Positions 541 to 16,057 of a stretch of DNA of 64,000 bases are shown in pieces; the first letter of the stretch is position 1, and each line of letters begins with the position of its first letter. The translations under genes and the position numbers were made by a program. The stretch is from sequence record NZ_LR134467.1; one strand, 5' to 3'. Source of the DNA: a plasmid. Under the pieces are notes generated by a model, which was not told where the DNA came from, did not search any database, and saw only the letters and a program-made list of their open reading frames with translations.

Positions 541-543
541 CCC

Positions 544-1125: not shown

Positions 1126-1180
1126 GGCGGCGATCCTATGTTAGACCTTTTGGAGAGATATCACTAAAACAGGAGCGATC

Positions 1181-1618
1181 ATGATCGAATCCAGTGCGGA
1201 GTCCCTCGCCCTCGCCGCCGCGGTTCTCGACGCCCAGCCCTTCAACGCCGTGGTCGGCGCCCGGATCACGGCGTTCGGCGGCGGCAACGCCGAACTCGTT
1301 CTCGACATCGAGGACCGGCACCGGCAACAGTTCGGCGTCGCCCACGGCGGCGTCCTCGCGTACCTCGCCGACAACGCGCTGACGTTCGCGGCGGGATCCG
1401 TCCTCGGCACGGACGTGCTCACCGGCGGCGTGGACGTGAACTACCTCCGCGCGGCCCGAGACGGACGGCTGCGCACCACGGCGACAGTCGTACACCGGGC
1501 CCGAACACACGCTGTGACCACCGCCGAGATCTGGCACGAGACCGACGGCGCCGAGCCCCGCCTGTGCGCCATCGCCCGCGGCACCGTCTTCGTCACCGCC
1601 CCGGGAGCGTCCCGATGA
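1181..1618 (+). CDS. PaaI/hotdog-fold acyl-CoA thioesterase
   Basis: 145 aa. Hotdog thioesterase motifs (GGVLAYLADNALTFAAGS, HGG). ATGA stop/start overlap with next gene. Confidence 0.7.
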   Translation: MIESSAESLALAAAVLDAQPFNAVVGARITAFGGGNAELVLDIEDRHRQQFGVAHGGVLAYLADNALTFAAGSVLGTDVLTGGVDVNYLRAARDGRLRTTATVVHRARTHAVTTAEIWHETDGAEPRLCAIARGTVFVTAPGASR

Positions 1619-2178
1619 CGGACCCGGACGTGGCACGAGTGGCGGCGCGCACCACAGTGCGCCGCGCGATCCGCACGTCACTGCACTGCGCGATCGCGTC
1701 GTGCAACCCCGACGGCTCCCCGCACGTCACCCCCATCGGCTCGATCCTGCTGGATCGGGATGCGCGGTCGGGCATCTACTTCGACGTGTTCAACGCGCGG
1801 CTCGCGCGCAATCTCGCACGCGACCCCCGGATCACGGTGCTAGCGGTCGACAGCGGCTCGCTCCGCTGGCTGCGCGCTCTGCTCCGTGGGCGGTTCGAGC
1901 AGAGTCCCGGGGTCCAGCTCGTGGGCACGGCCGGCCCGGCCCGGCCCGCGCGCCCCGAGGAGATCACCCGGTTCCGCCGGTTGGTCGGACCGCTCGGCAG
2001 GACTCCCGGCGGGCGCGCCTTCTGGTCCGACCTGTCCCGGGTGCGCGACCTCCGCTTCGACGACGCCCGCCCGATCCACCTGGGCCCGATGACGCGTGAG
2101 CGACGAGTCAGTCCGCGACGACGGTGCCCTGGTGGAACATCACGGTCCACCGGTTCTCGCGGCGACGCCACACGGTGA
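1615..2178 (+). CDS. pyridoxamine 5'-phosphate oxidase (PNPOx) family FMN/F420-binding protein
   Basis: ATG at 1615 overlaps thioesterase stop (ATGA). PNPOx-like split-barrel motifs (CNPDGSPHVTPIGSILLD). 3' end may be shorter, since it overlaps the convergent gene. Confidence 0.55.
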   Translation: MTDPDVARVAARTTVRRAIRTSLHCAIASCNPDGSPHVTPIGSILLDRDARSGIYFDVFNARLARNLARDPRITVLAVDSGSLRWLRALLRGRFEQSPGVQLVGTAGPARPARPEEITRFRRLVGPLGRTPGGRAFWSDLSRVRDLRFDDARPIHLGPMTRERRVSPRRRCPGGTSRSTGSRGDATR

Positions 2179-2506
2179 GCCGACGGGTGACGCGGTCGCC
2201 CTGCGCCAGCGTGTAGGTGAGCAGGTACACGGAGGCGCCCATCGCACGGACCTGGAACTCGCTGGTCTCCCAGTCCGATTCGTCCGGCGGCGCGGCGATC
2301 CGCTGGTCGGTCACCGCCCGGACGTGCTCGCGGCTGTACCGCCGGCCCGAGGCACCGACCTCCCAGAAGTCGGGCGCGACCGCGTCGTCGAAGTCGGCGA
2401 GCGAGCGCCAGGAGGGGCCGTGGAAGACGGGTTCGCGGCGGCGGAGCTCCGCGAGCACCTCGCGCAGCTCCGGCTCGGTGGTCCGGTCCGGCTCCTCCTC
2501 GATCAC
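2108..2506 (-). CDS. SnoaL-like / NTF2-fold protein (DUF4440-like)
   Basis: 132 aa ORF with NTF2-like pattern (WRRRENRWTVMFHQGTVV at the C-terminus). Confidence 0.5.
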   Translation of the reverse strand: MIEEEPDRTTEPELREVLAELRRREPVFHGPSWRSLADFDDAVAPDFWEVGASGRRYSREHVRAVTDQRIAAPPDESDWETSEFQVRAMGASVYLLTYTLAQGDRVTRRLTVWRRRENRWTVMFHQGTVVAD

Positions 2507-2522
2507 TTGCCTAAGGCTACCC

Positions 2523-5500
2523 TCACTGCCAATCGCGGGACCGCGAGGGCACCGACAGGTCCATGCGCTGCAGTCGATCGGCGACGACGGTGACGGCGCC
2601 CTCCGCGTTCTGCAGCTTCCCCCGGATCAGCAGCGCGGGCGCCGACTGCGCCAGCCGCCGATACCGCGCCCACAGCCCCTGGCTGCACACCACGTTCACC
2701 ATGCCGGTCTCGTCCTCGAGGTTGATGAAGGTGACGCCGCCCGCGGTGGCGGGCCGCTGCCGGTGCGTGACGGCCCCGCCCACCAGGACGCGGTCACCGT
2801 CGGGCAGCGAGAGGAGGCGGTCGGCCGGGACGACACCGAGACGGTCGAGGGTGGGCCGCAGGAACTCCGTCGGGTACTTGCCGACGGTGACCGACGTGGC
2901 CCACACGTCCGCCGCCGCGAGCTCCGTCTCGCTCATGCCGGGCAGGGCGGGCGGCGCGCCCGCGGTGGCGGTACCCGGCAGCCGGTCCGGACGCTCCCGC
3001 GCGGCGGCACCCGCCTCCCACAGCGCCTGCCGGCGGTCGCGGCCGAAGCAGTCCAACGCACCGGAGGTGGCGAGCGCCTCCGACTGCGCGACCGTGAGCT
3101 CGACCCGAGCCGTGAGATCGGTGAGGCCCGCGTAGGCGCCGCGCGCGTCCCGCTCGTGGGCGATGCGCTCGGCGAGGTCGTCGCCGATGGTGCGGATCGC
3201 GGCCAGGCCGAGCCGGACCTCCGCACCCGCGTTCTCCAGATCCGCCCACGGCAGGCTGCGGTTCACGCACGGCCCGTGCACGGTGACGCCGTGCCGTCGC
3301 GCGTCGGCGACGAGGGACTGCGGCGAGTAGAAACCCATCGGCTGGGCCCGCAACAGCGCCGCGCAGAAGGCCGCCGGATGGTAGAGCTTGAACCACGAGG
3401 AGTAGAAGACCAGCGACGCGAACGACTGCGAATGACTCTCGGGGAAGCCGAAGTTGGCGAAGGCGGCGAGCTTCTCGAAGATCCGGTCGGCCACCTCCCC
3501 CTCGATGCCGTGCCGGTGCCGCGCACCGTCGTAGAAGCGCTGCCGCAGCTGCTCCATCTTCTCCGTGGAGCGCTTCGAGCCCATGGCGCGGCGCAGCTGG
3601 TCGGCCTCCGCCGGGGAGAAGCCGGCGACGTCGGTGGCGAGTTGCATGAGCTGCTCCTGGAAGAGCGGCACCCCCAGCGTGCGCCGCAGGGCCTTCCACA
3701 TCGACGGGTGCTCGACGGCCGGCTCCTCCAGCCCGTTGCGGCGGCGGATGTACGGGTGCACCGAACCGCCCTGGATGGGGCCGGGCCGGATGAGCGCGAC
3801 CTCCACCACCAGGTCGTAGAAGTTCCGCGGTTTCAGGCGCGGCAGCGTGGCCATCTGCGCGCGCGACTCCACCTGGAAGACGCCCACGGAGTCGGCGCGA
3901 CAGAGCATCTCGTAGACGTTGGCGTCGGCGAGGTCGAGCTGCGCGAAGTCCACGTCGATGCCCTTGTGCTCGGCGAGGAGGTCCTTCGCGTAGTGCAGCG
4001 CGCTGAGCATCCCGAGGCCCAGCAGATCGAACTTCACCAGGCCCGCGGCCGCGCAGTCGTCCTTGTCCCACTGCAGCACGCTGCGGTCCTCCATGCGGGC
4101 CCACTCGGTGGGGCAGACGTCGGCGATCGGACGGTCGCAGATCACCATGCCGCCCGAGTGGATCCCCAGATGCCGCGGCAGGTCCGCGATCTGCGTCGCC
4201 AGCTCGACCACCCGGCCCGGGATCCCCTCGGGCACCGGATCGTTCCGCCACCCCCAGCTGGAGACCTGTTTGCTCCAGGCGTCCTGCTGCCCCTGCGAGT
4301 AGCCGAGCGCCCGCGCCGTGTCACGGACCGCGGACCGGCCGCGGTAGGTGATGACGTTGGCGACCTGCGCGGCGTACTCGCGGCCGTACTTCCGGTAGAC
4401 GAACTGGATCGCCTCCTCCCGGCGATCCGACTCGATGTCGACGTCGATGTCGGGCGGGCCGTCGCGCTCGGGGGCGAGGAAGCGCTCGAAGAGCAGCTGG
4501 TTGCGCACCGGGTCCACCGCCGTGATGCCCAGCGCGAAGCAGACGGCCGAGTTGGCGGCGCTGCCGCGGCCCTGGCACAGGATGTCGTTCTCGCGGCAGA
4601 AGGTGACGATGCTGTGCACGATGAGGAAGTAGCCCGGGAAGGTGAGCGTCTCGATCACGTTCAGCTCGTGCTCGATCTGCCGGTACGCCTGCGGGTTCCG
4701 CTCCGGCGGGCCGTACCGCTCCAGCGCCCCGCGCCGGGTCAGCTCGCGCAGCCAGGTGGCCTCCGTGTGGCCCGACGGGACGTCGAAGGGCGGCAGGTTC
4801 GGCGCGATCAGCTTGAGGCTGAAGGCGCACTCGGCGCCGAGCTCGGCGGCGGCCGCGATGGCGCCGGGATGTTCGGGTAGCAGCAGCGCCATCTCGTCGC
4901 CCGAGCGCAGGTGCGCGCCGCCCGCGGCGGGGAGCCAGCCGTCGAGTTCGTCGAGGCTGCGGCGGGCGCGGATCGCCGCGAGCGTGGACGCCAGGTGCCG
5001 CTGGCCGGGCCGGGCGAAGTGCGCCCCCGTGGTGGCGACGGTGCCCACCCCCATCCGCGCGGCCACGCCGGCGAGGAGATGGTTGCGCTCGTCGTCCTCG
5101 GGGACGCCGTGGACGGTGAGCTCCATGCTCACCCGCCCCTCCCCGAAGCGGTCGACGAGCTGCGCGAGGGCGGCGGCGGCACCGTCGGGCCCACCGGCGG
5201 CGAGGCCGCGCCGGACCGCGCCCTTGCGGCAGCCGGTGAGGATGTGCCAGTGTCCGCCGGACCATTCGGCGAGGCGGTCCGGGTGGAAACGCAGCAGCCC
5301 CTTCTCCCCCGCCTCCATGTGCGCCTCGGCCATCGCGCGCGAGAGGCGGCGGTACCCCTCCTGGCCGCGGGCGAGCACGAGCAGGTGATCGCCCGACGGG
5401 TCCTCGGCGCCGGTGCGCATCGCGTCGTGCTCCAGGGACAGCTCCGCCCCGAAGACCGTGGGAACGCCCAGCTCCAGCGCGGCCTCGGCGAACCGGACCA

Positions 5501-5816
5501 CCCCGTAGAAGCCGTTGTGGTCGGTGACCGCGAGGGCCTTCAGGCCGAGCGCGTGGGCCTGCTCGACCATCTCCTCCGGCAGCGCGGCGCCGTCGAGGAA
5601 GCTGAACGCGGTGTGCGCGTGCAGCTCCGCATAGGGCACGCGGGAGACCCCGGGACCGCCGCCGGACGGCACGTAGGGCTCGCGCTTGCGGGACCACGCC
5701 GGCGAATCGCCACCGTCGCCCGGCGGCTCCTCCGCCCGGCGCACCGGGGCCCGCCCGGAGAGCACCCGCTCCATCTCCGACCAGCTCGGCCCGTTGCTCC
5801 ATCCCACACCCAGCAT
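2523..5816 (-). CDS. dnaE2: error-prone DNA polymerase DnaE2 (ImuC)
   Basis: About 1100 aa. PHP domain (ELHAHTAFSFLDGA), Pol III alpha catalytic core and OB fold. N-terminus MLGVGWSNGPSWSEMERVL matches the DnaE2 start. Alternative starts GTG 5807 or ATG 5849. Confidence 0.9.
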   Translation of the reverse strand: MLGVGWSNGPSWSEMERVLSGRAPVRRAEEPPGDGGDSPAWSRKREPYVPSGGGPGVSRVPYAELHAHTAFSFLDGAALPEEMVEQAHALGLKALAVTDHNGFYGVVRFAEAALELGVPTVFGAELSLEHDAMRTGAEDPSGDHLLVLARGQEGYRRLSRAMAEAHMEAGEKGLLRFHPDRLAEWSGGHWHILTGCRKGAVRRGLAAGGPDGAAAALAQLVDRFGEGRVSMELTVHGVPEDDERNHLLAGVAARMGVGTVATTGAHFARPGQRHLASTLAAIRARRSLDELDGWLPAAGGAHLRSGDEMALLLPEHPGAIAAAAELGAECAFSLKLIAPNLPPFDVPSGHTEATWLRELTRRGALERYGPPERNPQAYRQIEHELNVIETLTFPGYFLIVHSIVTFCRENDILCQGRGSAANSAVCFALGITAVDPVRNQLLFERFLAPERDGPPDIDVDIESDRREEAIQFVYRKYGREYAAQVANVITYRGRSAVRDTARALGYSQGQQDAWSKQVSSWGWRNDPVPEGIPGRVVELATQIADLPRHLGIHSGGMVICDRPIADVCPTEWARMEDRSVLQWDKDDCAAAGLVKFDLLGLGMLSALHYAKDLLAEHKGIDVDFAQLDLADANVYEMLCRADSVGVFQVESRAQMATLPRLKPRNFYDLVVEVALIRPGPIQGGSVHPYIRRRNGLEEPAVEHPSMWKALRRTLGVPLFQEQLMQLATDVAGFSPAEADQLRRAMGSKRSTEKMEQLRQRFYDGARHRHGIEGEVADRIFEKLAAFANFGFPESHSQSFASLVFYSSWFKLYHPAAFCAALLRAQPMGFYSPQSLVADARRHGVTVHGPCVNRSLPWADLENAGAEVRLGLAAIRTIGDDLAERIAHERDARGAYAGLTDLTARVELTVAQSEALATSGALDCFGRDRRQALWEAGAAARERPDRLPGTATAGAPPALPGMSETELAAADVWATSVTVGKYPTEFLRPTLDRLGVVPADRLLSLPDGDRVLVGGAVTHRQRPATAGGVTFINLEDETGMVNVVCSQGLWARYRRLAQSAPALLIRGKLQNAEGAVTVVADRLQRMDLSVPSRSRDWQ

Positions 5817-5860
5817 TCTACGCTTATATGTTCGATGAATGTTCGACACTCGAACGCTTC
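5817..5860 (-). promoter_or_regulatory. candidate dnaE2 promoter/operator: TATAAG -10-like hexamer plus clustered SOS-box hexamers (TTCGA-N6-TTCGA; GTTCGA-CAC-TCGAAC palindrome)
   Basis: Seen directly at 5823-5855, immediately upstream of the dnaE2 start. Hexamers are identical to LexA half-sites but not in canonical TCGAAC-N4-GTTCGA spacing. Confidence 0.4.
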
Positions 5861-5998
5861 ACATGCGCCGGACGCTGCCGACACCCGCGAGCGCTGCCAC
5901 GAACCGGCAGCGTGGACGGAATCCGGCAGCGCGCTGCCGGAACTCACCCGGGCAGCGGGCGATGCCGCGAACACTGTGGCCGCCGCGGCCTGACGGGC

Positions 5999-6481
5999 TC
6001 AGGCCTCGTCGGCGAGACCCGGGGTGACCTTGGAGAGAGCGGCGCGCAGCGCGGTGACGTCGCGCGCCGTGAGGTGGTCGAAGACCAGGCGGCGAACCTC
6101 CGCGACGTGCCCGCGGGCGGCACCGTCGAGCGCGGCGAAGCCCTCGTCGGTGAGCTCGGCGTAGGCCGAGCGCCCCTCCGCGCGCCGCACCAGCCAGCCG
6201 CGCTCGCCGAGCTTGCGCAGCACGTGCGACAGGCGCGAGGGCGACGAGTTGGCGGCCTCGGCGAGTGCCGACAGGCCGAGCGTGCGGTCGGGCGCCTGCG
6301 AGAGCTGCGCGAGCACCATGAACTCGTAGTGGGTGATGCCCGCGTCGGCGCGCAGCTGCGTGTCCAGCTTCGAGGGCAGCCGCATCGCGACGTGGATGAG
6401 GGGCAGCCAGGCCGCCATCTCCTCGTCGGACAGCCACCGGGTGTTCCCCGTGTCCACCATCGCCACACCCCCGAACATCAC
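5999..6481 (-). CDS. MarR family transcriptional regulator
   Basis: 160 aa, winged-helix MarR pattern (LGLSALAEAANSSPSRLSHVLRKLGERGWLVR). Confidence 0.8.
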   Translation of the reverse strand: MMFGGVAMVDTGNTRWLSDEEMAAWLPLIHVAMRLPSKLDTQLRADAGITHYEFMVLAQLSQAPDRTLGLSALAEAANSSPSRLSHVLRKLGERGWLVRRAEGRSAYAELTDEGFAALDGAARGHVAEVRRLVFDHLTARDVTALRAALSKVTPGLADEA

Positions 6482-6534
6482 GTCGGGACCCGAGTTTACC
6501 GGCTCCGCATTTCGGTGAACGGCGCCTCACCGAC

Positions 6535-7461
6535 GTGGGTACATTGACCGGTATGAGCAGTCCGAGCACCACGCCGGGACCGACCTCCGACGCGGAGATC
6601 CCCGTCTACCTGGAGTCCCTCGGCATCCCCGGCCTCGCCGACATCCACGTGCACTTCCTGCCCGAGCCGATGCTGGTCAAGGTGTGGGACTTCTTCGACC
6701 GCGCGAGCGCCGAGTACGGCCGCGAGTGGCCCATCCGGTACCGGTTCGACGAGGACACCCGGCTGGAGCTGATCCGCGGCATGGGCGTGACGGCGATCCC
6801 CGCGCTCACCTACCCGCACAAGCCCGGGATGGCGGTGTGGCTCAACGAGTGGTGCGCCGAGTTCGCGCGCCGCGTGCCCGACGGCATCCACTGCGCCACG
6901 CTCTACCCCGAGCCCGGCGTGGGCGAGTACGTCGCGCAGGCCGTCGCCGACGGTGCGCGGTTGTTCAAGATGCACGTCCAGGTGGGCGTCTTCGCGCCCG
7001 ACGACCCGCTGCTGGATCCCGCCTGGGAGGTGCTGGCCGCGGCGAGGATCCCGGTGGTGATCCACGCCGGCTCCGGCCCCGTCGAGGGCCCGTACACCGG
7101 CCCCGACCGCGTCGGCGAGGTGCTGCGCCGGCACCCCGAGCTGACACTCGTCATCGCGCACCTCGGCATGCCGGAGTACGACCGGTTCGCCGACCTCGCC
7201 GAGCGCTTCCCCCACGTGTACCTCGACACCACCATGGCCGCGACCGACTTCACCGAGCGGACCGCCCCGATGCCGCCCGGATACGTCGAGCGGCTCGGCG
7301 CGCTCGCCGACAAGGTGGTGTTGGGCAGCGACTTCCCCAACATCCCGTACGAGTACGCGCACCAGCTCTTCGGGCTGGCGCGGCTCGGCCTCGGCGACGA
7401 ATGGATGCGCAAGGTGCTGTGGCACAACGGCCGCGCCCTGCTGGAGCGCGCGGGCGCCTGA
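6535..7461 (+). CDS. amidohydrolase-2 family metal-dependent hydrolase
   Basis: 308 aa. HxH metal-binding start (ADIHVHF), conserved His/Asp later (VIHAGSG, IAHLGMP, LGSDFP). Confidence 0.75.
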   Translation: MGTLTGMSSPSTTPGPTSDAEIPVYLESLGIPGLADIHVHFLPEPMLVKVWDFFDRASAEYGREWPIRYRFDEDTRLELIRGMGVTAIPALTYPHKPGMAVWLNEWCAEFARRVPDGIHCATLYPEPGVGEYVAQAVADGARLFKMHVQVGVFAPDDPLLDPAWEVLAAARIPVVIHAGSGPVEGPYTGPDRVGEVLRRHPELTLVIAHLGMPEYDRFADLAERFPHVYLDTTMAATDFTERTAPMPPGYVERLGALADKVVLGSDFPNIPYEYAHQLFGLARLGLGDEWMRKVLWHNGRALLERAGA

Positions 7462-7475
7462 GCACGGGCCGTACG

Positions 7476-8756
7476 ATGGCCCTCATGCAGATCCGGCGCG
7501 CCGCGGTGGCGCTGTTCGTCGCGGGGACCCTCGCGGCGTGCGGCGGCGCACCGTCGGCGCCCGAGACCCTGTCGCTCGAGCGGTCCAAGACCGCCTTCGA
7601 GCAGGTGGGGATCGACGAGACCCGCGACGACGTGACCGCGCTGGTCTCCACCGCCACCCGCGTCGGCGCGCGGCTCGCGGCGGGCGACCCGCGCGCGGCG
7701 AGCACCGCCGTCTCCCCCTGGTCGGTCCTGAGCCTGCTGGGCATGCTCCGAGCCGGGGCGCAGGGCGAGACCGCCGCGCAGCTCGACGGTGCCGGGCTCG
7801 GCGCCGCGAAGAACCTCCCGCGGGCGATGGCGGCTCTCACCGGCCAGGCCGCGCAGTGGGCGGGCGATCCGGGCACCGTCCCCACGGGCACACCGCCCGC
7901 GTCGCCGCTGTTCCAGTCGCAGGTCGCGCTCCTGACGGCCAAGCAGCCCGAGGACCGGCGCGTCCGGTCCCCGTACCTGGACGCGCTCGCCGCGAGTTAC
8001 GACACCGGCGTCTACCCGGTGGACTTCGGCCTCGGCGTGGGCGAGCCGCTGGGCGAGTGGGTGGCCGTGAACACCGGCAGCAGCCTCACCGCGGCGCCGC
8101 TGCGCACCGACGCCGACACGCGCCTCGCCGCCGCGACGACCGCGTACCTCGCGGCCGCGTGGCGCTTCCCGTTCGACGCCGCCCGGACGCGGCCCGCGCC
8201 GTTCACCGCCGCCGACGGCGCCGTTCTCGACCCGCTCACCATGCGCGGCACGGTGCCCGCGCGGGTGGCCGCGGGCGAGGGCTTCACGGCGTTGCAGCTC
8301 GACTACGGCACCACGCTCGCACTGCAGATCGTGCTACCCACCCCCGGGACGCCGCTCGCCGACGCGGCGAGCGAGGGCCGGTTCACCGCGGCGCGGATCG
8401 CGCTGGCGGGGGCACCGTCGACGCCGCACGAGGTGAGCCTGCCGAAGTGGCGCACCAGCACCTGGACCGGGCTCGCCGATCCGCTCCGGGACGCGGGCCT
8501 GACGGCGCTGTTCGCGGGCCCCGGCCTCGACGGCGTGGCCCCGGGATCGCCGTCGCTGGCCGACGCCCGCGCGGCGGCCGTGCTCACCGTCGGAGAGAAG
8601 GGCACCGCCACCGACACCGCGACCGCGGCGCCGACCCCGGAGCCCGCGCCGGGCCCCGCGCCCTTCGTGGTGGATCGGGCCTTCGCGTACTCGGTGGTCG
8701 ACACGGCGACAGGGATGCCCCTGATGATGGGGACGGTCAACCGGCCGGGCGCATAG
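7476..8756 (+). CDS. serpin-family protease inhibitor, predicted lipoprotein
   Basis: Signal peptide with lipobox LAAC. Serpin N-terminal motif (SPWSVLSLLGMLRAGAQGETAAQL). Hinge GEKGTATDTATAA and C-terminal FVVDRAFAYSVVD..PLMMGTVNRP signature. Starts 14 bp after the amidohydrolase stop. Confidence 0.8.
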   Translation: MALMQIRRAAVALFVAGTLAACGGAPSAPETLSLERSKTAFEQVGIDETRDDVTALVSTATRVGARLAAGDPRAASTAVSPWSVLSLLGMLRAGAQGETAAQLDGAGLGAAKNLPRAMAALTGQAAQWAGDPGTVPTGTPPASPLFQSQVALLTAKQPEDRRVRSPYLDALAASYDTGVYPVDFGLGVGEPLGEWVAVNTGSSLTAAPLRTDADTRLAAATTAYLAAAWRFPFDAARTRPAPFTAADGAVLDPLTMRGTVPARVAAGEGFTALQLDYGTTLALQIVLPTPGTPLADAASEGRFTAARIALAGAPSTPHEVSLPKWRTSTWTGLADPLRDAGLTALFAGPGLDGVAPGSPSLADARAAAVLTVGEKGTATDTATAAPTPEPAPGPAPFVVDRAFAYSVVDTATGMPLMMGTVNRPGA

Positions 8757-8846
8757 CCCGCACACCACCTGTTGGTATTGCAAATCCACATTCCTTCCAG
8801 CGGTTATCTTTTCACCAAAGTCTCGACTTCACGTTAAGGTTGAGGC

Positions 8847-10129
8847 ATGACCATGAAGCTGACCCGCCCGCTCCGCGCGGCGGCCCGTTCGGCGTGGGCC
8901 CTCACGGGCACCGCGCTGCTCGCCGTGCTGATCGCGCTCGTCGCGGGCGGCGCCACCTTCCTCATCGCCGCGGGGACGACTCCGCCCGCGCCGGCCCAGG
9001 AGCGGGAGAACGCCGAGAACACGCGCGTCGCCCTCAAAGCCGCCGACGAGTCGCGCGCGCTCTTCGGCCTACTGTCCAACGCCGTGGTCTCCGCCGGGAA
9101 CGGCCTGAACACCTCGGCCGGCTCGGTCCCGCAGATCTTCGACAGCGTCGACACCGCCAAAACCGGTGCCGAACAGCTGGTCTCGGGCCTCGACGAGGCG
9201 TCCTCGCTCTCCGCCGCGCTGGGCCAGGTGAACCGGGCGACCGCCACGCTCACCGGCGCCCTCGAGCGCACGCAGGGACTGCAGCAGGTGGCGGCGGGCA
9301 CCCGCGCGGCGCTCGTGGCACTGCGCGGACGGCTGATCGAGCACCCGTCGCCCGGATCGGCCGAGGCCGTCGCGCAGCTCGACCGCGCGCTCGCCGGCTC
9401 GAAGGGCGTGGGCGCGCTCGACGACGTGGCCGGGATGCGGAGCACGCTCTCGACCATGACGAGCAGCCTGAGCAGCGCGTCCGCCAACGCCGACGCCTCG
9501 CTCACCTCCGCCCGCAGCGCCGCCCGGCAACTGCGCGACGGGCTGACCAAGCTGGCCTCGGCGCGCAAGGACGTCAACGCCTCCGTCACCAACCTGACCA
9601 CCGGTGTGGGACAGCTGAAGACGGCGCTCGGCGCCATCGACGGCCAGCTCGCCCTCACGCAGACCCGGCTGCGGTCCGTGACCAGCGCGCCCGCCCCGGC
9701 GCCGGACCCCGGCATCGCGCGGCCACTCGCCTGGGCGCTCGTCGTGGGCGGCGCGGCGGGCACCGTCACCTACCTGGCCGCACTCGCGGTCGCCCATCGT
9801 CTGCGCCGCCGGGAGGCGGTCGCCGTGGAGGCGGCGGAGGCCGTCGAAGCCGCGACCGCGGACCTGGCCGAGTCCGATGAGGCCGCCACCGAGGCCACCC
9901 CCGCCGAGGAGGTTCCCGCCGCGGGGCACCACCGGGTTCTGCCGCCGGCCGACGAGGCCGCGGGGACGCCCTCGCGGAGCCCGCCGCGGAGGAGGCACCC
10001 GAGGATTCCGAGGGCACGGCGCTCACGCCCGGGAAGCGGGCGAAGCACCGGCGCAACCGGTTCCGGCCCGCCCCGGCGCCGGACACCAACCCGTACCTCT
10101 CGGTGGCCTTCTCGGGCAGCGCGGGCTGA
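8847..10129 (+). CDS. membrane-anchored coiled-coil protein with YhgE/Pip-like Leu/Gly heptad repeats and acidic C-terminal tail; reading frame interrupted near 9962
   Basis: N-terminal TM, about 250 aa Ala/Leu/Ser/Thr/Gln-rich helical repeats, second TM, acidic tail. The frame that ends cleanly at 10129 (just before imuB) is only reached after a +1 shift at a GGGG run (9962-9965). Confidence 0.5.
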
Positions 10130-10143
10130 GCCGGTCGGCTCCT

Positions 10144-11736
10144 CTACTCGTACACGCCCTCCACCTCCCAGCCCCCGGCGTACTGCAGTAGCAGGGCCCG
10201 GCCGTCGTCGCGGCCCGGCGCGGGCTCGAGCAGCACCTGGGCGCGGGCCCGGGGCTCGGTGGCACCGTCGGCGGCCCACCACCGCTCGTCGACCAGCCAC
10301 GGCCCCGCCCACCAGCGCAGCGACCAGTCGCGCGAGCCCCACACCAGGTGCGTGGGCTCACCCGTGAAGGCGCCGCGCTCGGTGACCCGCACGGCGGCGC
10401 CCGCGGCATCGGTCATCGTGACCGCGGCGCCCGTGACCAGAACCGACGGTGCCGGCTCCGGCATCCGCCCGGGCCACGGCGCGGCCGGATCGCGCTCCGG
10501 GACCACCTCGTCGCCCAGCGGCACCCAGGTGACCCGCTCGGCCGGGCCGCGACCGCCGCTGCGCACCCCCATCCGCACCGCCTCGCCGCCGAGCAGGCCC
10601 TGCACCCGGACCAGGGCGCGGCGGAACCGGGCGGCACCGTCGGCCTCGTCGCCCCACATGCCCGCCTGCAGCGCGCCGGCGTCGACCACCTCGACGGGTT
10701 CGAGCCGCAGCAGGGAGATCGGGGCGCCCGGGCCGCCGTCCCCGTCCCGCTTCGCGGACCGGCCGCCGGTGAGCCAGCCGTCGATCTGCCAGCGCACGCG
10801 GTCGGCCGTGCCGTCCGGGGTGAGCGGCTCGGCGCAGCGCCAGATGCGGCTGTGCCGTTCGCCGTTCTCGGCGATCGCGGAGACCTCCAGGCGCAGGCAC
10901 GCGACGCCGGCCGCGGACAGCTTGCCGTGCAGCTCCGCGGCCAGGGCGCGGCCGGCGAAGGCCGCCGCGTCGACCCGGTCGATCGGCGGGTCGGGCCGCA
11001 GCTCCACCTCCAGCCCGGGCGGCAGGGCCGCGGTGGACGGCGGCCGGTCCGGCACCGCGCGGGCCTGCCGGTGCGCGGCGATCGCGTCGGTCCCGAAACG
11101 GGTGGCCACATCGGTCGCGGAGAGCGCCGCGAAGGCGCCGACGGTGCGCAGCCCCAGCCGGCGCAGCAGGTCGAGGAGCTCGGTGCGGTCGCCGCCCGCG
11201 AGCGCGGGTTCGGCCCCCAGCTGGGCGATGGGCAGCGGGGCGAGGAAGGTCGCCGACTCCCCCGGCGGGACGACGGTGCCGCGGCGGGCCGCCAGGGCCG
11301 CGGTGAAGACCTCGTCGGCGATGCCGGCGAGCGACTCCGCGCCCACGGAGGAGGCCGCGTCCACCAGGCGCTCGGCGGCCTGCTCCTCGCCGCCGAAGAA
11401 GCGCGCCGCGCCGCGCGCCGGGATCACCACGAGCCCCGGGCGCAGCACCTCGATGAGCGGGATCAGGGCGGCCACCGCGCCGGCCACGGGCTCGAAGAGC
11501 CGCGCGTCCCGGCCCTCGTCGGCCTGGGCGACGTGCAGTCCCGGGCAGCGGGCCTGGGATTCGCGGCGCTTCATGCCGCGGCGCACACCGTCGGCCCGGG
11601 CGGGGGCGTTGCAGGCGACGACCCGGTTGCCGTGCAGGACGGCGACGGGGCGGTCGGGCGGCAGGTCCGCGTCCGCCGCCGCGGCGGCCGCCGGCCAGTC
11701 CGGGCACCACAGCGCGAGGATACGCTGCGCGGTCAC
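10144..11736 (-). CDS. imuB: ImuB, Y-family polymerase-like mutasome subunit
   Basis: 530 aa. N-terminus MTAQRILALWCPDWP typical of ImuB. Overlaps the imuA' stop by 4 nt. Confidence 0.85.
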   Translation of the reverse strand: MTAQRILALWCPDWPAAAAAADADLPPDRPVAVLHGNRVVACNAPARADGVRRGMKRRESQARCPGLHVAQADEGRDARLFEPVAGAVAALIPLIEVLRPGLVVIPARGAARFFGGEEQAAERLVDAASSVGAESLAGIADEVFTAALAARRGTVVPPGESATFLAPLPIAQLGAEPALAGGDRTELLDLLRRLGLRTVGAFAALSATDVATRFGTDAIAAHRQARAVPDRPPSTAALPPGLEVELRPDPPIDRVDAAAFAGRALAAELHGKLSAAGVACLRLEVSAIAENGERHSRIWRCAEPLTPDGTADRVRWQIDGWLTGGRSAKRDGDGGPGAPISLLRLEPVEVVDAGALQAGMWGDEADGAARFRRALVRVQGLLGGEAVRMGVRSGGRGPAERVTWVPLGDEVVPERDPAAPWPGRMPEPAPSVLVTGAAVTMTDAAGAAVRVTERGAFTGEPTHLVWGSRDWSLRWWAGPWLVDERWWAADGATEPRARAQVLLEPAPGRDDGRALLLQYAGGWEVEGVYE

Positions 11737-12464
11737 TGCGCCGCCGCCCTTCGACGCTGCTCGGCGCCCCAGTGCTGCTCAGCGCCCCGCTGCGGGTTGA
11801 CGCAGCCGCGGCCGCGGGCGGAGAAGACCAGGTCGATCCCGCGGATCCGGCCGCGGCCCGGCCGGGTGCCGAGGCCGGTGTAGCCCTGCACGCGCGCGCC
11901 GAGGTGCAGCGCGGCGCCCTCCCACCGGCCGCCGGTGACCAGCAGTACCGAACCCCGGGAGCGGGCCCGGGCGGCGATGGCCCGGCCGCGACTGGGAGGC
12001 ACCGCGATGCCGCCCAGCTCGCACAGCACCACGTCGGCACCGTCGAGCAGGATCGAGGCGACGGCCACCGGATCCGCGAGCGGGCCGGCGATGAGCGCGA
12101 TGCGCTCCGGATCGGCCCCCTGTTCGAGTGCGGCGGCCATGCCGAAGCCGGACACGCCGCACAGCGCGACCCGCGCCCCGGCCCGCGAGACGCCGGCCAC
12201 CAGCGAGACCGCGAGCGAGCCGGCGCCCGCGACCTCCGCGACCGTGCCGCGGGGCAGGCCGCCGCCCGGCAGCAGCCGGGCGAGTTCCTCGTGCACCGGG
12301 AGCACGCCCATGCCGAGCTGCGCCGACTCATCCTGCAGCGGCGCCTCCACGGGCGCCCGCGCCTTCGCCGGACGATGCCTCTCCGGCAGCGCCGCGAGCC
12401 GCTTGCGCAGCTCCGCGAGCTTCTCCTCGCGGCCCCCGGCCAATGCCTGAACACGTGCGGACAT
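11733..12464 (-). CDS. imuA': ImuA' (RecA/SulA-like mutasome subunit)
   Basis: 243 aa. Degenerate RecA-fold motifs (GTVAEVAGAGSLAVSLVAG). Position directly upstream of imuB with ATGA overlap. SOS box upstream. Confidence 0.8.
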   Translation of the reverse strand: MSARVQALAGGREEKLAELRKRLAALPERHRPAKARAPVEAPLQDESAQLGMGVLPVHEELARLLPGGGLPRGTVAEVAGAGSLAVSLVAGVSRAGARVALCGVSGFGMAAALEQGADPERIALIAGPLADPVAVASILLDGADVVLCELGGIAVPPSRGRAIAARARSRGSVLLVTGGRWEGAALHLGARVQGYTGLGTRPGRGRIRGIDLVFSARGRGCVNPQRGAEQHWGAEQRRRAAAQ

Positions 12465-12540
12465 GTGTCACACCCCTCCCCTACCTTCGGATCCCGCGTC
12501 ACCGATCAGTGCGGAAGCCGAGCCACGGGGAAGACATGAC

Positions 12541-12556
12541 TAGAACTTCTGTTCGA
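12541..12556. promoter_or_regulatory. LexA (SOS) box TAGAAC-TTCT-GTTCGA
   Basis: 11/12 match to the actinobacterial consensus TCGAAC-N4-GTTCGA, 77-92 nt upstream of the imuA' start. Confidence 0.7.
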
Positions 12557-12700
12557 TCTGATCTCAGCGTAGATCCGCGATCCGAACGGCGTCAAGCGCC
12601 GAGGTAGGAGAGGTTCCGAACGGGGATGCGGGCAACGCATCACATGATCGCCGCAGGTCAGGGGCAACGTCGGCGGCACGGGCGTCAGCCCGGACAGAAC

Positions 12701-12736
12701 GACGGCGGACCGCCCCGTCGGGGGCGATCCGCCGTC
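12701..12736 (-). terminator. GC-rich hairpin downstream of permease gene
   Basis: Inverted repeat GACGGCGGACCGCCCC / GGGGCGATCCGCCGTC (one mismatch) right after the permease stop. Confidence 0.4.
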
Positions 12737-12753
12737 ATCGAGCGAGCGGGAGA

Positions 12754-14259
12754 TCAGCCCACGCGGTTCGGATCGTGGTGCGCGGAGGCCGCCGCGACGG
12801 GCGACAGGTCCGCGGTCTTCGGGTCGACGGTGGGCGTCTTGGTGATCAGCTTGTGTCCCCACCACAGCCCCAGGAACAGGATCAGCGCGGCGTACGTGGT
12901 GAGCAGCAGACTGACGCTGCCTCCCGTGTCGGAATCGGTGACCGCGACGTAGTACTGCCCCGCGACGACCGCGACACACATGAGGAGCGCCACGATCGGA
13001 CCCGCGGGGTACAGCCACGCCTTGTAGGGCAGCTCGTCGAGCGAGCGCCCCTGCGCGTTCCACGCCCGGCGGAACTTGTAGTGCGCCCACGCGATCCCGA
13101 TCCAGGTCACGAACCCGGCCACGGACGAGGCCGCGACCAGCACCGTGTACGCGGCACCATCGCCCTTCGGGCCGGCGAGGAAGCACAGGCACCCGATCAC
13201 GGTGGTCGCCGCCGTGGCGGCGATGGGAACGCCGGCCTTGGTCACCTTGGCGAAGATCTTCGGCGCGTTGCCCTCCACCCCCAGGCCGTACAGCGCGCGC
13301 GTGGCGGCGAACAGGCTGGCGTTGCCGGCGGAGAGGATGGCGATGAGGATGACCGCGTTCATGATCGACGCCGCGGCATCGATGCCCGCGAGCTTGAAGA
13401 CCAGCGTGAACGGCGCCACCGCGACGTTCTCCGCCGAGGCGTCCAGGAGCTCGGGGCTGGTGTACGGGATGAGGAAGGCGATGATCGTCAGCGTGCCGAT
13501 GTAGAAGACCAGGATCCGGAAGAAGACGGTGCGCACCGCGCGCGGGATGGCGCTCTTCGGCTCGATGGCCTCGCCCGCCGCGACCGCGATCATCTCCGTG
13601 CCCTGGAAGGCGAAGCCCGCGATGAGGAAGACCGAGAGCATGCCCAGCGGCCAGTCCACGAAGGGCGCGTCGCCGATGGTCCAGTTGGAGAAGCCGGGAG
13701 ACGGGCCGTCGCCGACCACGCCCAGCACCATGAGCACGCCGACGATGAGGAAGATCACCACGGCGATCACCTTGATCGACGCGAACCAGAACTCGGCCTC
13801 GCCGAAGGCCTTCACCGCGAACAGGTTCAGGGCCAACAGGCCGGCGAGGAAGATCACCGACCAGATCCAGGTGGGCACGTCGGGCAGCCAGAACTTCATG
13901 ATCAGGCCGGCCGCCACCACCTCCGCGGCCAGCGTGATCGACCAGTTGAACCAGTAGTTCCACCCGGCGGCGAAGCCGAAGGACTTACTGACGAACCGGC
14001 TGCCGTACTCCTCGAACGGATTACTGCACGGCATGTACGCCGACATCTCGCCGAGGCTCTGCATGAGGAAGAAGACCATGACGCCCATGAGCGCGTACGC
14101 CAGGAGGGCGCCACCGGGGCCGGCCTGGCTGATCGTGGCGCCGGACGCCACGAACAGGCCGGTGCCGATCGCGCCGCCGAGCGCGAGCATGCTGATGTGG
14201 CGACTCTGCAGTCCTTGGCGGAGGGAGTCATCGGGGGTGATTCCAAGAGGGCTGGACAC
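12754..14259 (-). CDS. APC-family amino acid permease
   Basis: 501 aa, 12 TM. Amino-acid permease signature (GTGLFVASGATISQAGPGGALLAYALMG). Confidence 0.85.
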   Translation of the reverse strand: MSSPLGITPDDSLRQGLQSRHISMLALGGAIGTGLFVASGATISQAGPGGALLAYALMGVMVFFLMQSLGEMSAYMPCSNPFEEYGSRFVSKSFGFAAGWNYWFNWSITLAAEVVAAGLIMKFWLPDVPTWIWSVIFLAGLLALNLFAVKAFGEAEFWFASIKVIAVVIFLIVGVLMVLGVVGDGPSPGFSNWTIGDAPFVDWPLGMLSVFLIAGFAFQGTEMIAVAAGEAIEPKSAIPRAVRTVFFRILVFYIGTLTIIAFLIPYTSPELLDASAENVAVAPFTLVFKLAGIDAAASIMNAVILIAILSAGNASLFAATRALYGLGVEGNAPKIFAKVTKAGVPIAATAATTVIGCLCFLAGPKGDGAAYTVLVAASSVAGFVTWIGIAWAHYKFRRAWNAQGRSLDELPYKAWLYPAGPIVALLMCVAVVAGQYYVAVTDSDTGGSVSLLLTTYAALILFLGLWWGHKLITKTPTVDPKTADLSPVAAASAHHDPNRVG

Positions 14260-14309
14260 CCGATGAGAGTAGCGACCCCGACACCACTCCGGTTAGCATT
14301 CGCAGCGTC

Positions 14310-14858
14310 ATGTTCTCCTACGACACCCGATCCGCCCTCGCGAGCGCCGCCGATCTGGTCAACACCGCCCCGGACGCGCGCACGGAGCGCCCCGAGCGCC
14401 TGCCCGACGTCGCCGCGCTCCGCGCCTTCGTGGAGCGCTGGGGCTGGACCGGCCCCATCCCGCTGCGCGACGACGAGCTGGATCGCGTGCACGCCGTGCG
14501 CCGCGTCCTGCGCGGCCTGTGGGACCTCGCGGGCGACGAGGCCGGCACCGTCGACCTGGTGAACCGGATGCTGCGCGACGCGGCGGTCCTGCCCCAGCTC
14601 GTGCGGCACGACGACTGGCCGTACCACCTGCACGGCTGGAACGACGCGACGCCCATCGCGGAGCGCTTCCTCGCCGAGCCCGCGATGGGCATGGTCGACG
14701 TGGTCCGCGCGGGTGCCCTCGACCGGCTGCGCCGGTGCGCCGCGCCGGACTGCGCCGGGGTGCTCGTGGACTTCAGCCGCAACAGCTCCCGCCGCTTCTG
14801 CGACGACGGATGCAACAACCGCCTGAACGTGGCCGCGTACCGCGCGCGCCGGGCCTGA
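14310..14858 (+). CDS. ABATE/CGNR zinc-finger domain protein
   Basis: C-terminal CxxC..CGNR motif (RCAAPDCAGVLVDFSRNSSRRFCDDGCNNRLNVAAYRAR). Confidence 0.8.
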   Translation: MFSYDTRSALASAADLVNTAPDARTERPERLPDVAALRAFVERWGWTGPIPLRDDELDRVHAVRRVLRGLWDLAGDEAGTVDLVNRMLRDAAVLPQLVRHDDWPYHLHGWNDATPIAERFLAEPAMGMVDVVRAGALDRLRRCAAPDCAGVLVDFSRNSSRRFCDDGCNNRLNVAAYRARRA

Positions 14859-14875
14859 CCCTTAGGATCAACGGC

Positions 14876-16057
14876 GTGGCGGAATCGACGGGTGCGGGCG
14901 GAGCGATCAGGGGCGTTCCCGGGCCCGATTACCTGGTCGCCGGGCGTTACCGCCTGACCTCCAAGATCGGCGGCGGCGGCATGGGCGCCGTGTGGCTCGC
15001 GCGCGACGAACGCCTGGACCGCGACGTGGCCGCCAAGCAGGTCATCTCCACCGAGGGCCTCACCCAGGAGGAGGCCGACGAGCTGCGTCGGCGCGCCCTG
15101 CACGAGGGCCGGCTCGCGGCCCGGCTGCAGCACCGCAACGCCGTCGCGATGTACGACGTGGCCCTCGACCGCGGCGAGCCCTGGCTGGTGATGGAGTACC
15201 TGCCCTCGCGCTCGCTCGCGCAGGTGCTGCACATGACCGGGTCCATGCCCGAGCGGCAGGTCGCGCAGATCGGCGCGCAGATGGCCGACGCCCTCATCGA
15301 GGCCCACGAGTCGGGGATCATCCACCGCGACATCAAGCCCGGCAACATCCTCATCGCGAACCGGGGCCGCGCGTCCGGCACCGTCAAGCTCTCGGACTTC
15401 GGCATCGCGCGGGCCAAGGGCGACGATGCCGGGCCCACCGGGATCATCACCGGCACGCCCGCCTACTTCGCGCCCGAGGTCGCCCGCGGCACCGAGCCCT
15501 CCGAGGCCTCCGACCTGTACTCGCTGGGCGCCACGCTGTACACCGCGCTCGAGGGTGCGCCGCCGTTCGGCGTCGACGAGGACTCGATCGCGCTGCTGCA
15601 CAAAGTCGCGCTGGGACAGATCAATCCGCCGAAGAACGACGGTCCGCTGATCCGCGTGATCCTGGACATGCTGCAGCCGAGCCCGAAGCGACGTCCCTCG
15701 CTCACCGACGCCCGGGACCGGCTCGCCGCGGTCGCGGCGGGCGGCGGCAACCCCGCCGCGATCCTCACCGCCCCGCTGCAGGCGACCGAGGGCGCGCCCG
15801 CGGTGTGGCTGCGGCGCACCGCCGGGGAACGCTCGTCGAGCGCCTCCGGGGATCGTGCGGCGACGGCGCGCACGGCATCGTCGGGCCCGATCGAGCGCAA
15901 GCGGCCCATCCCGCCCGCACCACGGCCCAGCACCTACGTGCCGCCGCCCGTGGCGCCGCCGTCGGGGATGTCGAACACCGTGCTCGCGGTGTGGATCATC
16001 GGCGGCTTCATCGTGCTCGCCGCGATCATCGCCGGCGTCATCATCGCGCTGGGCTGA
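14876..16057 (+). CDS. Ser/Thr protein kinase, C-terminally membrane-anchored
   Basis: Hanks kinase motifs (GGGGMGAVW, VAAK, HRDIKPGNIL, DFG, GTPAYFAPE). Single C-terminal TM (VLAVWIIGGFIVLAAIIAGVIIALG) ends the protein. GTG start chosen; upstream in-frame ORF overlaps the CGNR gene. Confidence 0.8.
   Translation: MAESTGAGGAIRGVPGPDYLVAGRYRLTSKIGGGGMGAVWLARDERLDRDVAAKQVISTEGLTQEEADELRRRALHEGRLAARLQHRNAVAMYDVALDRGEPWLVMEYLPSRSLAQVLHMTGSMPERQVAQIGAQMADALIEAHESGIIHRDIKPGNILIANRGRASGTVKLSDFGIARAKGDDAGPTGIITGTPAYFAPEVARGTEPSEASDLYSLGATLYTALEGAPPFGVDEDSIALLHKVALGQINPPKNDGPLIRVILDMLQPSPKRRPSLTDARDRLAAVAAGGGNPAAILTAPLQATEGAPAVWLRRTAGERSSSASGDRAATARTASSGPIERKRPIPPAPRPSTYVPPPVAPPSGMSNTVLAVWIIGGFIVLAAIIAGVIIALG

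Follow-up and report, generated by a model that had tools for sequence, protein, structure and literature searches.

Positions 6535–10129 of the 64,000-nucleotide (nt) stretch that we analyzed from sequence record NZ_LR134467.1 (the window) hold an amidohydrolase gene, a serpin gene and a gene for a membrane protein (gene 3). This block belongs to a Tsukamurella genome and fills a pocket between dnaE2 and imuB-imuA′, the mutasome genes. The original prediction presented it as a single cell-envelope protease-inhibitor module next to SOS genes. We think it reasonably probable that three separate things share one chromosomal pocket and do not form one module, and that the serpin-fold lipoprotein is no longer a classical inhibitor. 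Related serpins in other genera retain the inhibitory hinge, their loops are of fixed length, and they probably act as true suicide inhibitors. In the Tsukamurella lineage, the Ala-rich hinge at P12–P9 appears to have been replaced by T/S-D-T/S-A or Pro-containing sequences, while the reactive-centre loop would have turned into a Pro/Thr/Ala-rich, repeat-encoded segment of 23–45 residues. The resulting protein may inhibit poorly or behave like a substrate; alternatively, it may be an envelope protein without inhibitory activity.

Because the GC content of the window is high (~73%), we fixed coding frames by third-position GC (phase plots) and homology. The best matches to the serpin were Tsukamurella proteins of 93% identity, annotated "serpin family protein", and a contig from a metagenome-assembled genome (MAG), L008, was 99–100% identical to the window over the entire block. 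Profile scores above the cut-offs upheld the identities first proposed for the MarR regulator, the amidohydrolase-2, the serpin and the mutasome flanks. The block and its immediate surroundings comprise the following features.

5999–6481 (−): MarR-family regulator gene, divergent from the amidohydrolase gene as originally described (PF01047, 28.3 bits; cut-off 24.6)
6482–6534: divergent intergenic region of 53 nt, with a 7-nt perfect inverted repeat
6535–7461 (+): gene for an Amidohydro_2 metal-dependent hydrolase/decarboxylase, first cistron of the putative operon (PF04909, E 6.9e-38)
7476–8756 (+): gene for the serpin-fold lipoprotein, 426 residues (PF00079, 130.5 bits, E 1.1e-37)
7476–7541 (+): serpin signal peptide and lipobox L-A-A-C (Cys22), as read from the sequence
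8595–8672 (+): serpin hinge and reactive-centre loop, residues 374–399, EK-GTATDTATAAPTPEPAPGPAPFVV; degenerate hinge, Pro/Thr-rich loop
8757–8846 (+): AT-rich spacer before gene 3 (GC ~0.5 versus 0.73 for the genome)
8813–8846 (+): gene 3 leader AAAGTCTCGACTTCACGTTAAGGTTGAGGC, with TAAGGT 6 nt before the ATG
8847–10129 (+): gene 3, a membrane protein with two transmembrane (TM) helices, to its ancestral stop; the open reading frame (ORF) as sequenced runs from 8847 to 10367; no Pfam family
9955–9966 (+): gene 3 frameshift site, from DNA alignment to L008:11100–11145

Fold, hinge and reactive-centre loop of the serpin

The serpin assignment has good support. The PF00079 match (cut-off 27) covered profile positions 14–370 of 370, and 94 PDB serpins matched at E<=1e-5, the best being conserpin (6.8e-16). 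An AlphaFold2 (AF2) model had a mean predicted local distance difference test score (pLDDT) of 86.7 and a predicted TM-score (pTM) of 0.86, with residues ~376–396 modeled as a low-confidence exposed coil. With this model, the top Foldseek match was native tengpin (E 1.6e-27), native miropin (5ncs) matched at E 2.7e-25, and TM-scores to native tengpin, miropin, C1-inhibitor and PAI-1 were 0.72–0.84. A native serpin fold is predicted, with the reactive-centre loop, whose presence the original prediction had left to be checked, exposed in the model.

The serpin is also likely to be anchored in the membrane. Its signal peptide, M-A-L-M-Q-I-R-R-A-A-V-A-L-F-V-A-G-T-L-A-A-C, fits the lipobox [LVI][ASTVI][GAS]C, and Cys22 of the LAAC lipobox noted earlier was invariant in 16 aligned homologues. 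Once exported and lipidated, the protein would be tethered on the outer face of the cytoplasmic membrane. An Arg-Arg pair in the signal peptide (MQIRRAAVAL; 7476–7520), kept in most Tsukamurella orthologues and absent in Williamsia and in sp. 8F, weakly resembles a twin-arginine translocation (Tat) motif, although it would be unusual for a metastable serpin to be exported already folded. Miropin is said by Ksiazek et al. 2015 to be a lipoprotein. "Membrane anchored" is already a recognized class of prokaryotic serpins (PMC8233489), and the membrane-anchored or lipoprotein serpins of bacteria (miropin, that of Bifidobacterium longum, groups T/U of Spence et al. 2021) share with the window serpin both the fold and an N-terminal export signal, which here carries a lipobox.

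The gene is not decaying. The ratio of nonsynonymous to synonymous substitution rates (dN/dS) was 0.125 in comparison with T. asaccharolytica and 0.22 with T. paurometabola, with similar values for the neighboring genes, as expected if the fold is under purifying selection.

We compared the hinge with that of known inhibitors. Inhibitory competence is marked by ExGTEAAAA at P17–P9 (PMC8233489). The window serpin has EKGTATDTA at these positions and falls outside the consensus: only the proximal E-K-G-T fits, while P12–P10 are T-D-T and not A-A-A. The hinge that the original prediction called complete is thus intact in its proximal part and lacks its Ala-rich part.

A one-genome-per-species scan yielded 78 serpin loci, which came from Tsukamurella, four Williamsia genomes, Gordonia jinhuaensis and many Arthrobacter and Pseudarthrobacter. 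When we applied a relaxed hinge pattern (E[EKR]GTxA[AS][AS][AV]), it matched 61 of the 62 copies from other genera (5/5 in Williamsia and Gordonia, 56/57 of the Arthrobacter-type) and none of the 26 Tsukamurella copies. The loops differed in the same way:

Arthrobacter-type: 53 distinct loops; hinge GT[VI]AAA[VA]T; loop of 24–28 residues
Williamsia/Gordonia: 5 distinct loops; hinge GT[VIL]AAS[AV]T; loop of 25–28 residues
Tsukamurella: 18 distinct loops; P12–P9 TDTA, SDTA, SDSA, AGTA, MAQP, IGEP or VARP; loop of 23–45 residues

Tsukamurella loops are rich in Pro, Thr and Ala, and DRAF stands in place of DRPF. In three divergent Tsukamurella lineages, P9 is Pro and P10 is Glu, Gln or Arg, residues that inhibition would require to enter beta-sheet A. 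The loop of the window serpin, counted from the hinge to strand s1C, has 24 residues, compared with 24–28 in canonical relatives and 23–45 genus-wide. Of all 24-residue stretches of the protein, it is the least conserved (identity 0.58 versus 0.80 elsewhere), and the DNA encoding it (8603–8662) is built of 6/12-nt tandem repeats, which explain the changes in loop length. We dropped the C-terminal serpin signature as evidence since it does not discriminate: a PROSITE-type pattern matched 0/26 Tsukamurella copies and only 5/57 of the Arthrobacter-type.

The homologues point to an actinobacterial clade of serpins that carry lipoboxes, which are present in the Williamsia and Arthrobacter proteins as well. 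The Williamsia, Gordonia jinhuaensis, Arthrobacter and Pseudarthrobacter serpins, an uncharacterized sister clade, share 32–39% full-length identity, the lipobox and the C-terminal core DTATGLPLF/LMG with those of Tsukamurella. Unlike the latter, they keep the GT[VIL]AA[AS][AV]T hinge, DRPF and a loop of 24–28 residues. Since the sister lineages have canonical hinges, the ancestor of the clade was probably an inhibitory lipoprotein serpin. In Tsukamurella, where the Ala-rich hinge is lost and the loop rebuilt while the rest of the fold is under selection, we infer that the fold has been kept and the loop-insertion function relaxed or changed, such that the protein is no longer a classical loop-insertion inhibitor.

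Several features weigh against loss of inhibition, which is itself a reading of sequence. The proximal hinge residues (P17 E, P16 K, P15 G and P14 T) are intact. The inward-facing P12 and P10 residues are small (Thr or Ser) in the clade of the window serpin, the Asp at P11 would point to solvent, and a loop of 24 residues lies in the canonical range. PAI-1, a good inhibitor, has Ser at P11–P9, and high variability of the reactive-centre loop is also typical of inhibitory serpins engaged in arms races. With small residues at P12 and P10 and a loop of canonical length, weak or unusual inhibition is possible.

These features bear on an alternative that we consider unlikely, yet plausible enough to weigh: that the serpin is a working membrane-anchored suicide inhibitor, which shields envelope proteins from endogenous or foreign serine proteases and whose loop sets its specificity. 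The odd loop could then target Pro- or Ala-directed proteases, with miropin and the Bifidobacterium serpins as models. Such a role would fit the native-like fold and exposed loop, which are predicted with high confidence, the purifying selection on the gene and a probably inhibitory ancestor. The bacterial serpins characterized so far are inhibitors (PMC6718151; PMC8233489). However, every Tsukamurella copy lacks the Ala-rich P12–P9, and in three lineages Pro at P9 and Glu, Gln or Arg at P10 occupy positions that would have to insert. The mechanism needs a fixed distance between hinge and P1, and loop length, with both sides of P1 taken together, varies widely within this one genus. Prolines would also fall at about P5, P3 and P1, and the loop DNA is evolving through repeat slippage. 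Lastly, a search for a partner protease, which covered 10 kb around the serpin in Tsukamurella, Williamsia and Gordonia and at 56 Arthrobacter-type loci, found no protease gene.

Miropin and the Bifidobacterium serpins have canonical hinges and have been shown to inhibit broadly, whereas the window serpin has T-D-T at P12–P10 and the Tsukamurella loop is Pro-rich and of variable length. There is a likeness to non-inhibitory serpins (ovalbumin, maspin, PEDF and HSP47), in which the fold is similarly selected and the hinge is off consensus. None of these is a bacterial lipoprotein. Of Drosophila serpins, 42% are non-inhibitory (PMC2770083). Among bacteria, Spence et al. suggested that a Streptomyces clade is non-inhibitory (PMC8233489); there the breach and shutter deviate and the hinge is often kept, the reverse of the Tsukamurella pattern.

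Hinge loss across Tsukamurella thus makes this a probable non-inhibitory bacterial serpin. If this holds, the clade is a natural experiment, in which one group of lipoprotein serpins kept the hinge in Williamsia, Gordonia and Arthrobacter and lost it in Tsukamurella while the fold stayed under selection. It would also be a convenient system in which to study what a non-inhibitory serpin does in the bacterial envelope; the roles of prokaryotic serpins are still termed "enigmatic" (PMC8233489). For annotation, "serpin family protein" in Tsukamurella should not be equated with "protease inhibitor".

The amidohydrolase-serpin pair and gene 3

We determined which genes of the block are inherited together. 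In a survey using tblastn of the window proteins against 87 loci, plus the gene tables of public contigs, the order MarR(−), amidohydrolase(+), serpin(+) was present in 19/19 Tsukamurella genomes. In all of these, the amidohydrolase gene shares its strand with the serpin gene, at a spacing of −8 to +53 nt; in the window, the serpin starts exactly 14 nt after the amidohydrolase stop, as first stated. From this spacing and conservation, we infer that the two genes are co-transcribed. MarR(−) and amidohydrolase-serpin(+) would then be a divergent regulator/operon pair with the serpin as the last cistron. The region between MarR and the amidohydrolase contains an inverted repeat, TCGGTGA/TCACCGA, at 6512–6518 and 6527–6533, which is a candidate MarR operator. 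A simple scan for sigma-70 promoters and terminators over 5800–10300 returned nothing, such a scan being uninformative for actinobacterial promoters.

The amidohydrolase matched PF04909 with 131.5 bits (cut-off 26.4) over profile positions 2–287 of 289, and its sole PDB relative was the uncharacterized BB4693 (3irs). The MarR match was a marginal pass, and orthologues are flagged MarR "weak" or "faint" in precomputed tables. In divergent Tsukamurella species, a gene for a LigB-type dioxygenase precedes the amidohydrolase, which suggests that the operon could be a unit of small-molecule (aromatic) catabolism.

Outside Tsukamurella, the neighbors of the serpin are different. Neither Amido2 nor gene 3 adjoined any of the 62 non-Tsukamurella serpins, and the upstream partner genes in the sister clade differ from the Tsukamurella amidohydrolase. 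In Williamsia, a gene resembling Ala_racemase_N/D-Ser-dehydratase lies upstream of the serpin (L026:4734–5936 and L030:8778–9905), overlapping its start by 4 nt in L026, and a gene of this type is also near the Gordonia jinhuaensis serpin (L029:12241–13398). The Williamsia serpin is again the last cistron after the gene for a cytoplasmic enzyme, one unlike that of Tsukamurella. The conserved Arthrobacter neighbors, judged by a look at their sequences only, resemble a PoxB-type thiamine pyrophosphate (TPP) enzyme, a major facilitator superfamily (MFS) transporter, a RamB-like regulator, a pyridoxal/HMP-type kinase and the glyoxylate-shunt enzymes isocitrate lyase and malate synthase.

In contrast to the amidohydrolase, gene 3 is an inconstant companion of the serpin. 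It follows the serpin in 13/19 Tsukamurella genomes and is absent or replaced in the other six, all of which keep the serpin. T. spumae, one MAG and sp. 1534 lack it, while in T. soli, sp. 8F and "BOG_194" (L003, L004 and L006; 11320–12405) DUF1697 and Imm5-like genes are in its slot. (The Imm5-like gene belongs to a family of immunity proteins.) At one locus, L088, AmiS/UreI and MarR genes on the opposite strand separate gene 3 from the serpin, and gene 3 still abuts imuB. Co-occurrence of the predicted trio was thus confirmed for part of Tsukamurella and for nothing beyond that genus.

Gene 3 also appears to have a start region of its own. The 35 nt before its ATG were conserved in 8/8 aligned loci, including L088, in which the serpin does not adjoin. 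TAAGGT placed 6 nt before an ATG is the typical arrangement of leaderless actinobacterial transcripts. Judging from this conservation, the leader is probably a promoter with a leaderless start, and gene 3 would be an independently transcribed unit. Because gene 3 is patchy, separable and has its own leader, we take the conserved unit to be MarR and the divergent amidohydrolase-serpin pair, with gene 3 separate, and the proposal of the trio as one module does not stand.

Could the serpin and gene 3 nevertheless be physical partners, with the gene 3 protein presenting or anchoring the serpin in the cell wall and a real envelope module wherever the trio is complete? The two genes are adjacent in most of the Tsukamurella genomes, both products are predicted to be extracytoplasmic, and purifying selection on both is similar. 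But the six genomes with the serpin and no gene 3, the split at L088 and the separate leader all speak against a partnership, as does the existence of gene 3 paralogues and homologues in Gordonia, Millisia and Mycolicibacterium. In the one paralogue context examined, that of a 46%-identical gene in T. strandjordii (L009:7716–9170), there is no serpin nearby. We regard a partnership as highly improbable.

The L009 paralogue is located 75 nt downstream of a 69-residue ORF that contains only sigma-70 region 4. This pairing of a sigma fragment with a membrane protein may hint at a regulatory (anti-sigma-like) role in the family.

Gene 3 does not belong to the YhgE/Pip/EsaA family, in which the original prediction had placed it on the strength of Leu/Gly heptad repeats. 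No Pfam or NCBIfam model scored above threshold; TIGR03057 reached 13 bits (cut-off 18.6; E 0.094), and no part of the protein passed. L-x-x-G occurred 3 times in the ectodomain, compared with 2.7 ± 1.4 in shuffled sequences. In YhgE/Pip/EsaA proteins, a large ectodomain leads into a C-terminal membrane domain of the multi-pass type. Gene 3 shares with them an Ala/Leu/Ser/Gly-rich helical ectodomain bounded by TM helices, but it has only two such helices and no multi-pass domain, and its profile search reached no member of the family. We therefore rejected this identity. That search, of 1.84 billion representatives, recovered only 22 relatives, every one of them named "hypothetical". Tsukamurella accounts for several paralogues, and the others are from Gordonia, Millisia and a single Mycolicibacterium, which makes gene 3 on present sequences a tiny orphan family restricted to Mycobacteriales. 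It should not be annotated as Pip/YhgE.

The part of the prediction that gave gene 3 a helical ectodomain between two TM helices agrees with structural modeling. The gene 3 protein has hydrophobic helices at residues ~17–42 and ~290–315. The AF2 model, made on the orthologue P0023 with alignment A2, starts with an N-terminal TM helix, continues with helices at 47–163 and 169–277 (pLDDT 75–89) that meet at HPSPGS in an antiparallel hairpin, and closes with the second TM helix and a disordered tail. Since the cytoplasmic side of both TM helices is flanked by basic residues, the helical hairpin is expected outside the cell, with both termini cytoplasmic. At ~110 residues per helix, we estimate that the hairpin would be ~16 nm long. 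With this model, Foldseek retrieved no PDB structure at E<=1e-3; what it did return were generic coiled coils (SMC, EnvC and HlyD).

Most of the gene 3 tail is disordered and highly variable, but its end (10066–10126, in the shifted frame; DTNPYLSV here) carries a motif conserved in alignment A2, F-x5-6-(D/E/N)-T-(N/D)-P-(W/Y/G)-(L/F)-(S/P/A)-V. It is preceded by RRNR in most Tsukamurella orthologues and survives even in paralogues of 45% identity, and it has the look of a site at which some partner docks.

As sequenced, gene 3 is frameshifted in its cytoplasmic tail. The original prediction ended the gene at 10129, which is indeed the ancestral stop, but the 1283 nt of 8847–10129 are not divisible by 3 and this stop is in a different frame from the start at 8847. 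Near 9925, the third-position GC signal switches from the frame of the start to the frame ending at 10129. The gene 3 proteins of T. paurometabola and L008 have 433 residues and a conserved C-terminus, ...RRNRFRPAPAPDTNPYLSVAFSGSAG, which is present in the window only in the frame that stops at 10129. Compared with the 99%-identical L008, the window is short of 25 nt after 9961: two 12-nt CCCGACGAGGCC units (PDEA repeats) and one G of a G5 run, which is G4 in the window (9962–9965). This deficit accounts for the frameshift, and the ORF as sequenced overlaps imuB by 224 nt. The frameshift may be a real mutation, or it may have arisen from a homopolymer or assembly error; annotation of this sequence should take it into account.

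Position of the serpin between dnaE2 and imuB

The mutasome genes and other features on either side of the block are as follows.

2108–2506 (−): DUF4440 gene
2523–5849 (−): dnaE2, error-prone DNA polymerase III alpha, the left flank (PHP, DNA_pol3_alpha with E 8e-82, finger, HHH_6 and OB domains)
10144–11736 (−): imuB, convergent with gene 3 (IMS domain E 6.7e-12; weak DNA polymerase IV-like matches)
11733–12464 (−): imuA′ (NF058630, 156 bits; cut-off 65)
12541–12556: LexA (SOS) box TAGAACTTCTGTTCGA, 77–92 nt upstream of imuA′
12754–14259 (−): amino-acid permease gene

Since the L008 orthologue of dnaE2 is called at 1097 residues, the true dnaE2 start may be ~33 nt further downstream. ImuB identity to orthologues was 86–100% in close Tsukamurella loci and 76–79% in divergent ones. 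An Rfam scan of 1–16000 gave no match.

The serpin occupies this interval in three genera. Serpins 37–39% identical to that of the window are also located between dnaE2 and imuB-imuA′ in the four Williamsia genomes and in Gordonia jinhuaensis. In T. spumae, one Tsukamurella MAG and two Williamsia genomes, only 17–86 nt separate the stop of the serpin gene from that of imuB. This convergence, found in Williamsia, T. spumae and the MAG, makes it likely that the ancestral layout was an enzyme gene followed by the serpin, convergent with imuB-imuA′. In Tsukamurella and Williamsia, the serpin and the mutasome genes are on opposite strands (gene 3 in the window is on the serpin strand), whereas a local inversion puts the serpin on the mutasome strand in Gordonia. 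Beyond imuA′ in Williamsia, ORFs called by third-position GC are candidates, by their size and orientation, for counterparts of the response-regulator and PspC-kinase genes annotated in L008. None of the 57 Arthrobacter-type serpins has mutasome genes close by.

We asked if the block could be under SOS control. With the LexA box defined as TCGAAC-N4-GTTCGA and an intact GAAC...GTTC core required, the box upstream of imuA′ was the only one in 1–16000; it is identical in L008, L013 and L018. The corresponding box of M. tuberculosis Rv3395c is TCGAACATATTTTCGA (PMC2724278). There was no LexA box in 6482–6534 or 8757–8846, the regions before the operon and gene 3, and none near the serpin in L001, L004, L008, L013, L018 or L026–L030. 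A scan of the regions before the operon and gene 3 for the RecA-NDp motif (PafBC control) also found none. These negative results, together with the strand of the serpin, do not bear out the proposed tie between a protease-inhibitor module and SOS genes.

Linkage of dnaE2 to imuA′B also exists in M. tuberculosis. In that species, dnaE2 (Rv3370c) and imuA′B (Rv3395c–Rv3394c) are on the same strand, 24 locus tags apart, with unrelated genes between (PMC2724278). The three genes, their strand and order and the LexA box before imuA′ are the same as in the window, in which the dnaE2-imuB interval is 4.3 kb. On this comparison, the linkage of dnaE2 to imuA′B is ancestral in Mycobacteriales and the interval is a variable pocket. 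Given that the genera are closely related, that M. tuberculosis has the linkage with other genes inside it, that no LexA box or RecA-NDp motif was found before the operon or gene 3, that orientation changes in Gordonia and that the Arthrobacter-type serpins are elsewhere, the position of the serpin is most simply explained as inherited synteny.

One set of observations weighs against synteny as the whole explanation. Of the genes in the dnaE2-imuB interval, the serpin alone is common to the three genera, and it was retained through the Gordonia inversion. Its persistence exceeds a little what neutral synteny would lead us to expect.

This persistence is the best argument for functional coupling of the serpin, with or without gene 3, to the mutasome, in which an envelope response would be co-selected with SOS mutagenesis, for example because the block and imuB are transcribed convergently or share a chromosomal domain. 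All other genes of the interval have turned over, the serpin and imuB stops are close together in four genomes, and gene 3 adjoins imuB even when split from the serpin. The association is also undescribed, as originally stated: our literature search found no paper mentioning a serpin together with imuB and dnaE2. However, neither LexA boxes nor RecA-NDp motifs precede the operon or gene 3 at the loci checked, orientation varies among genera, the 57 Arthrobacter-type homologues are away from mutasome genes and the serpin is predicted to be extracytoplasmic. Unrelated filler separates dnaE2 from imuA′B in M. tuberculosis, and the genomes sharing the arrangement are close relatives, with genes of similar size and like orientation flanking imuA′ in both Tsukamurella and Williamsia (as candidate counterparts in Williamsia). 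We give a functional link between the serpin and the mutasome very little credence. Striking as a link to SOS mutagenesis would be, the data do not back it.

A combined scenario is likewise very improbable in our view. Here, retention of the serpin at dnaE2-imuB would be selected, with the serpin and, in some species, gene 3 acting in an envelope response of these mycolic-acid bacteria linked to DNA damage, and the Tsukamurella form would be repurposed and non-inhibitory, with a Pro/Thr-rich loop that is possibly O-glycosylated.

Upstream of dnaE2 itself (5826–5860, minus strand), there is no canonical LexA box, in contrast to M. tuberculosis dnaE2, which has a perfect one. Instead, we observed an everted repeat, GTTCGA-GTG-TCGAAC, after which come another TCGAAC half-site and a −10-like hexamer, TAGAAT. 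In Gordonia jinhuaensis (L029), TAGAACGCATGTTCGA is immediately before dnaE2.

Three public records among the homologues (L053, L024 and P0043) are probably mislabeled. A contig labeled "Vibrio cholerae 35D" encodes an Arthrobacter-type serpin whose loop is one residue (P13 V/I) off that of the Arthrobacter MAG L043. The contig "Acidobacteriaceae BOG_194" is a Tsukamurella-like locus, and a protein labeled "Nocardiopsis tropica" equals a T. strandjordii gene 3 protein in length and in its scores against the query.

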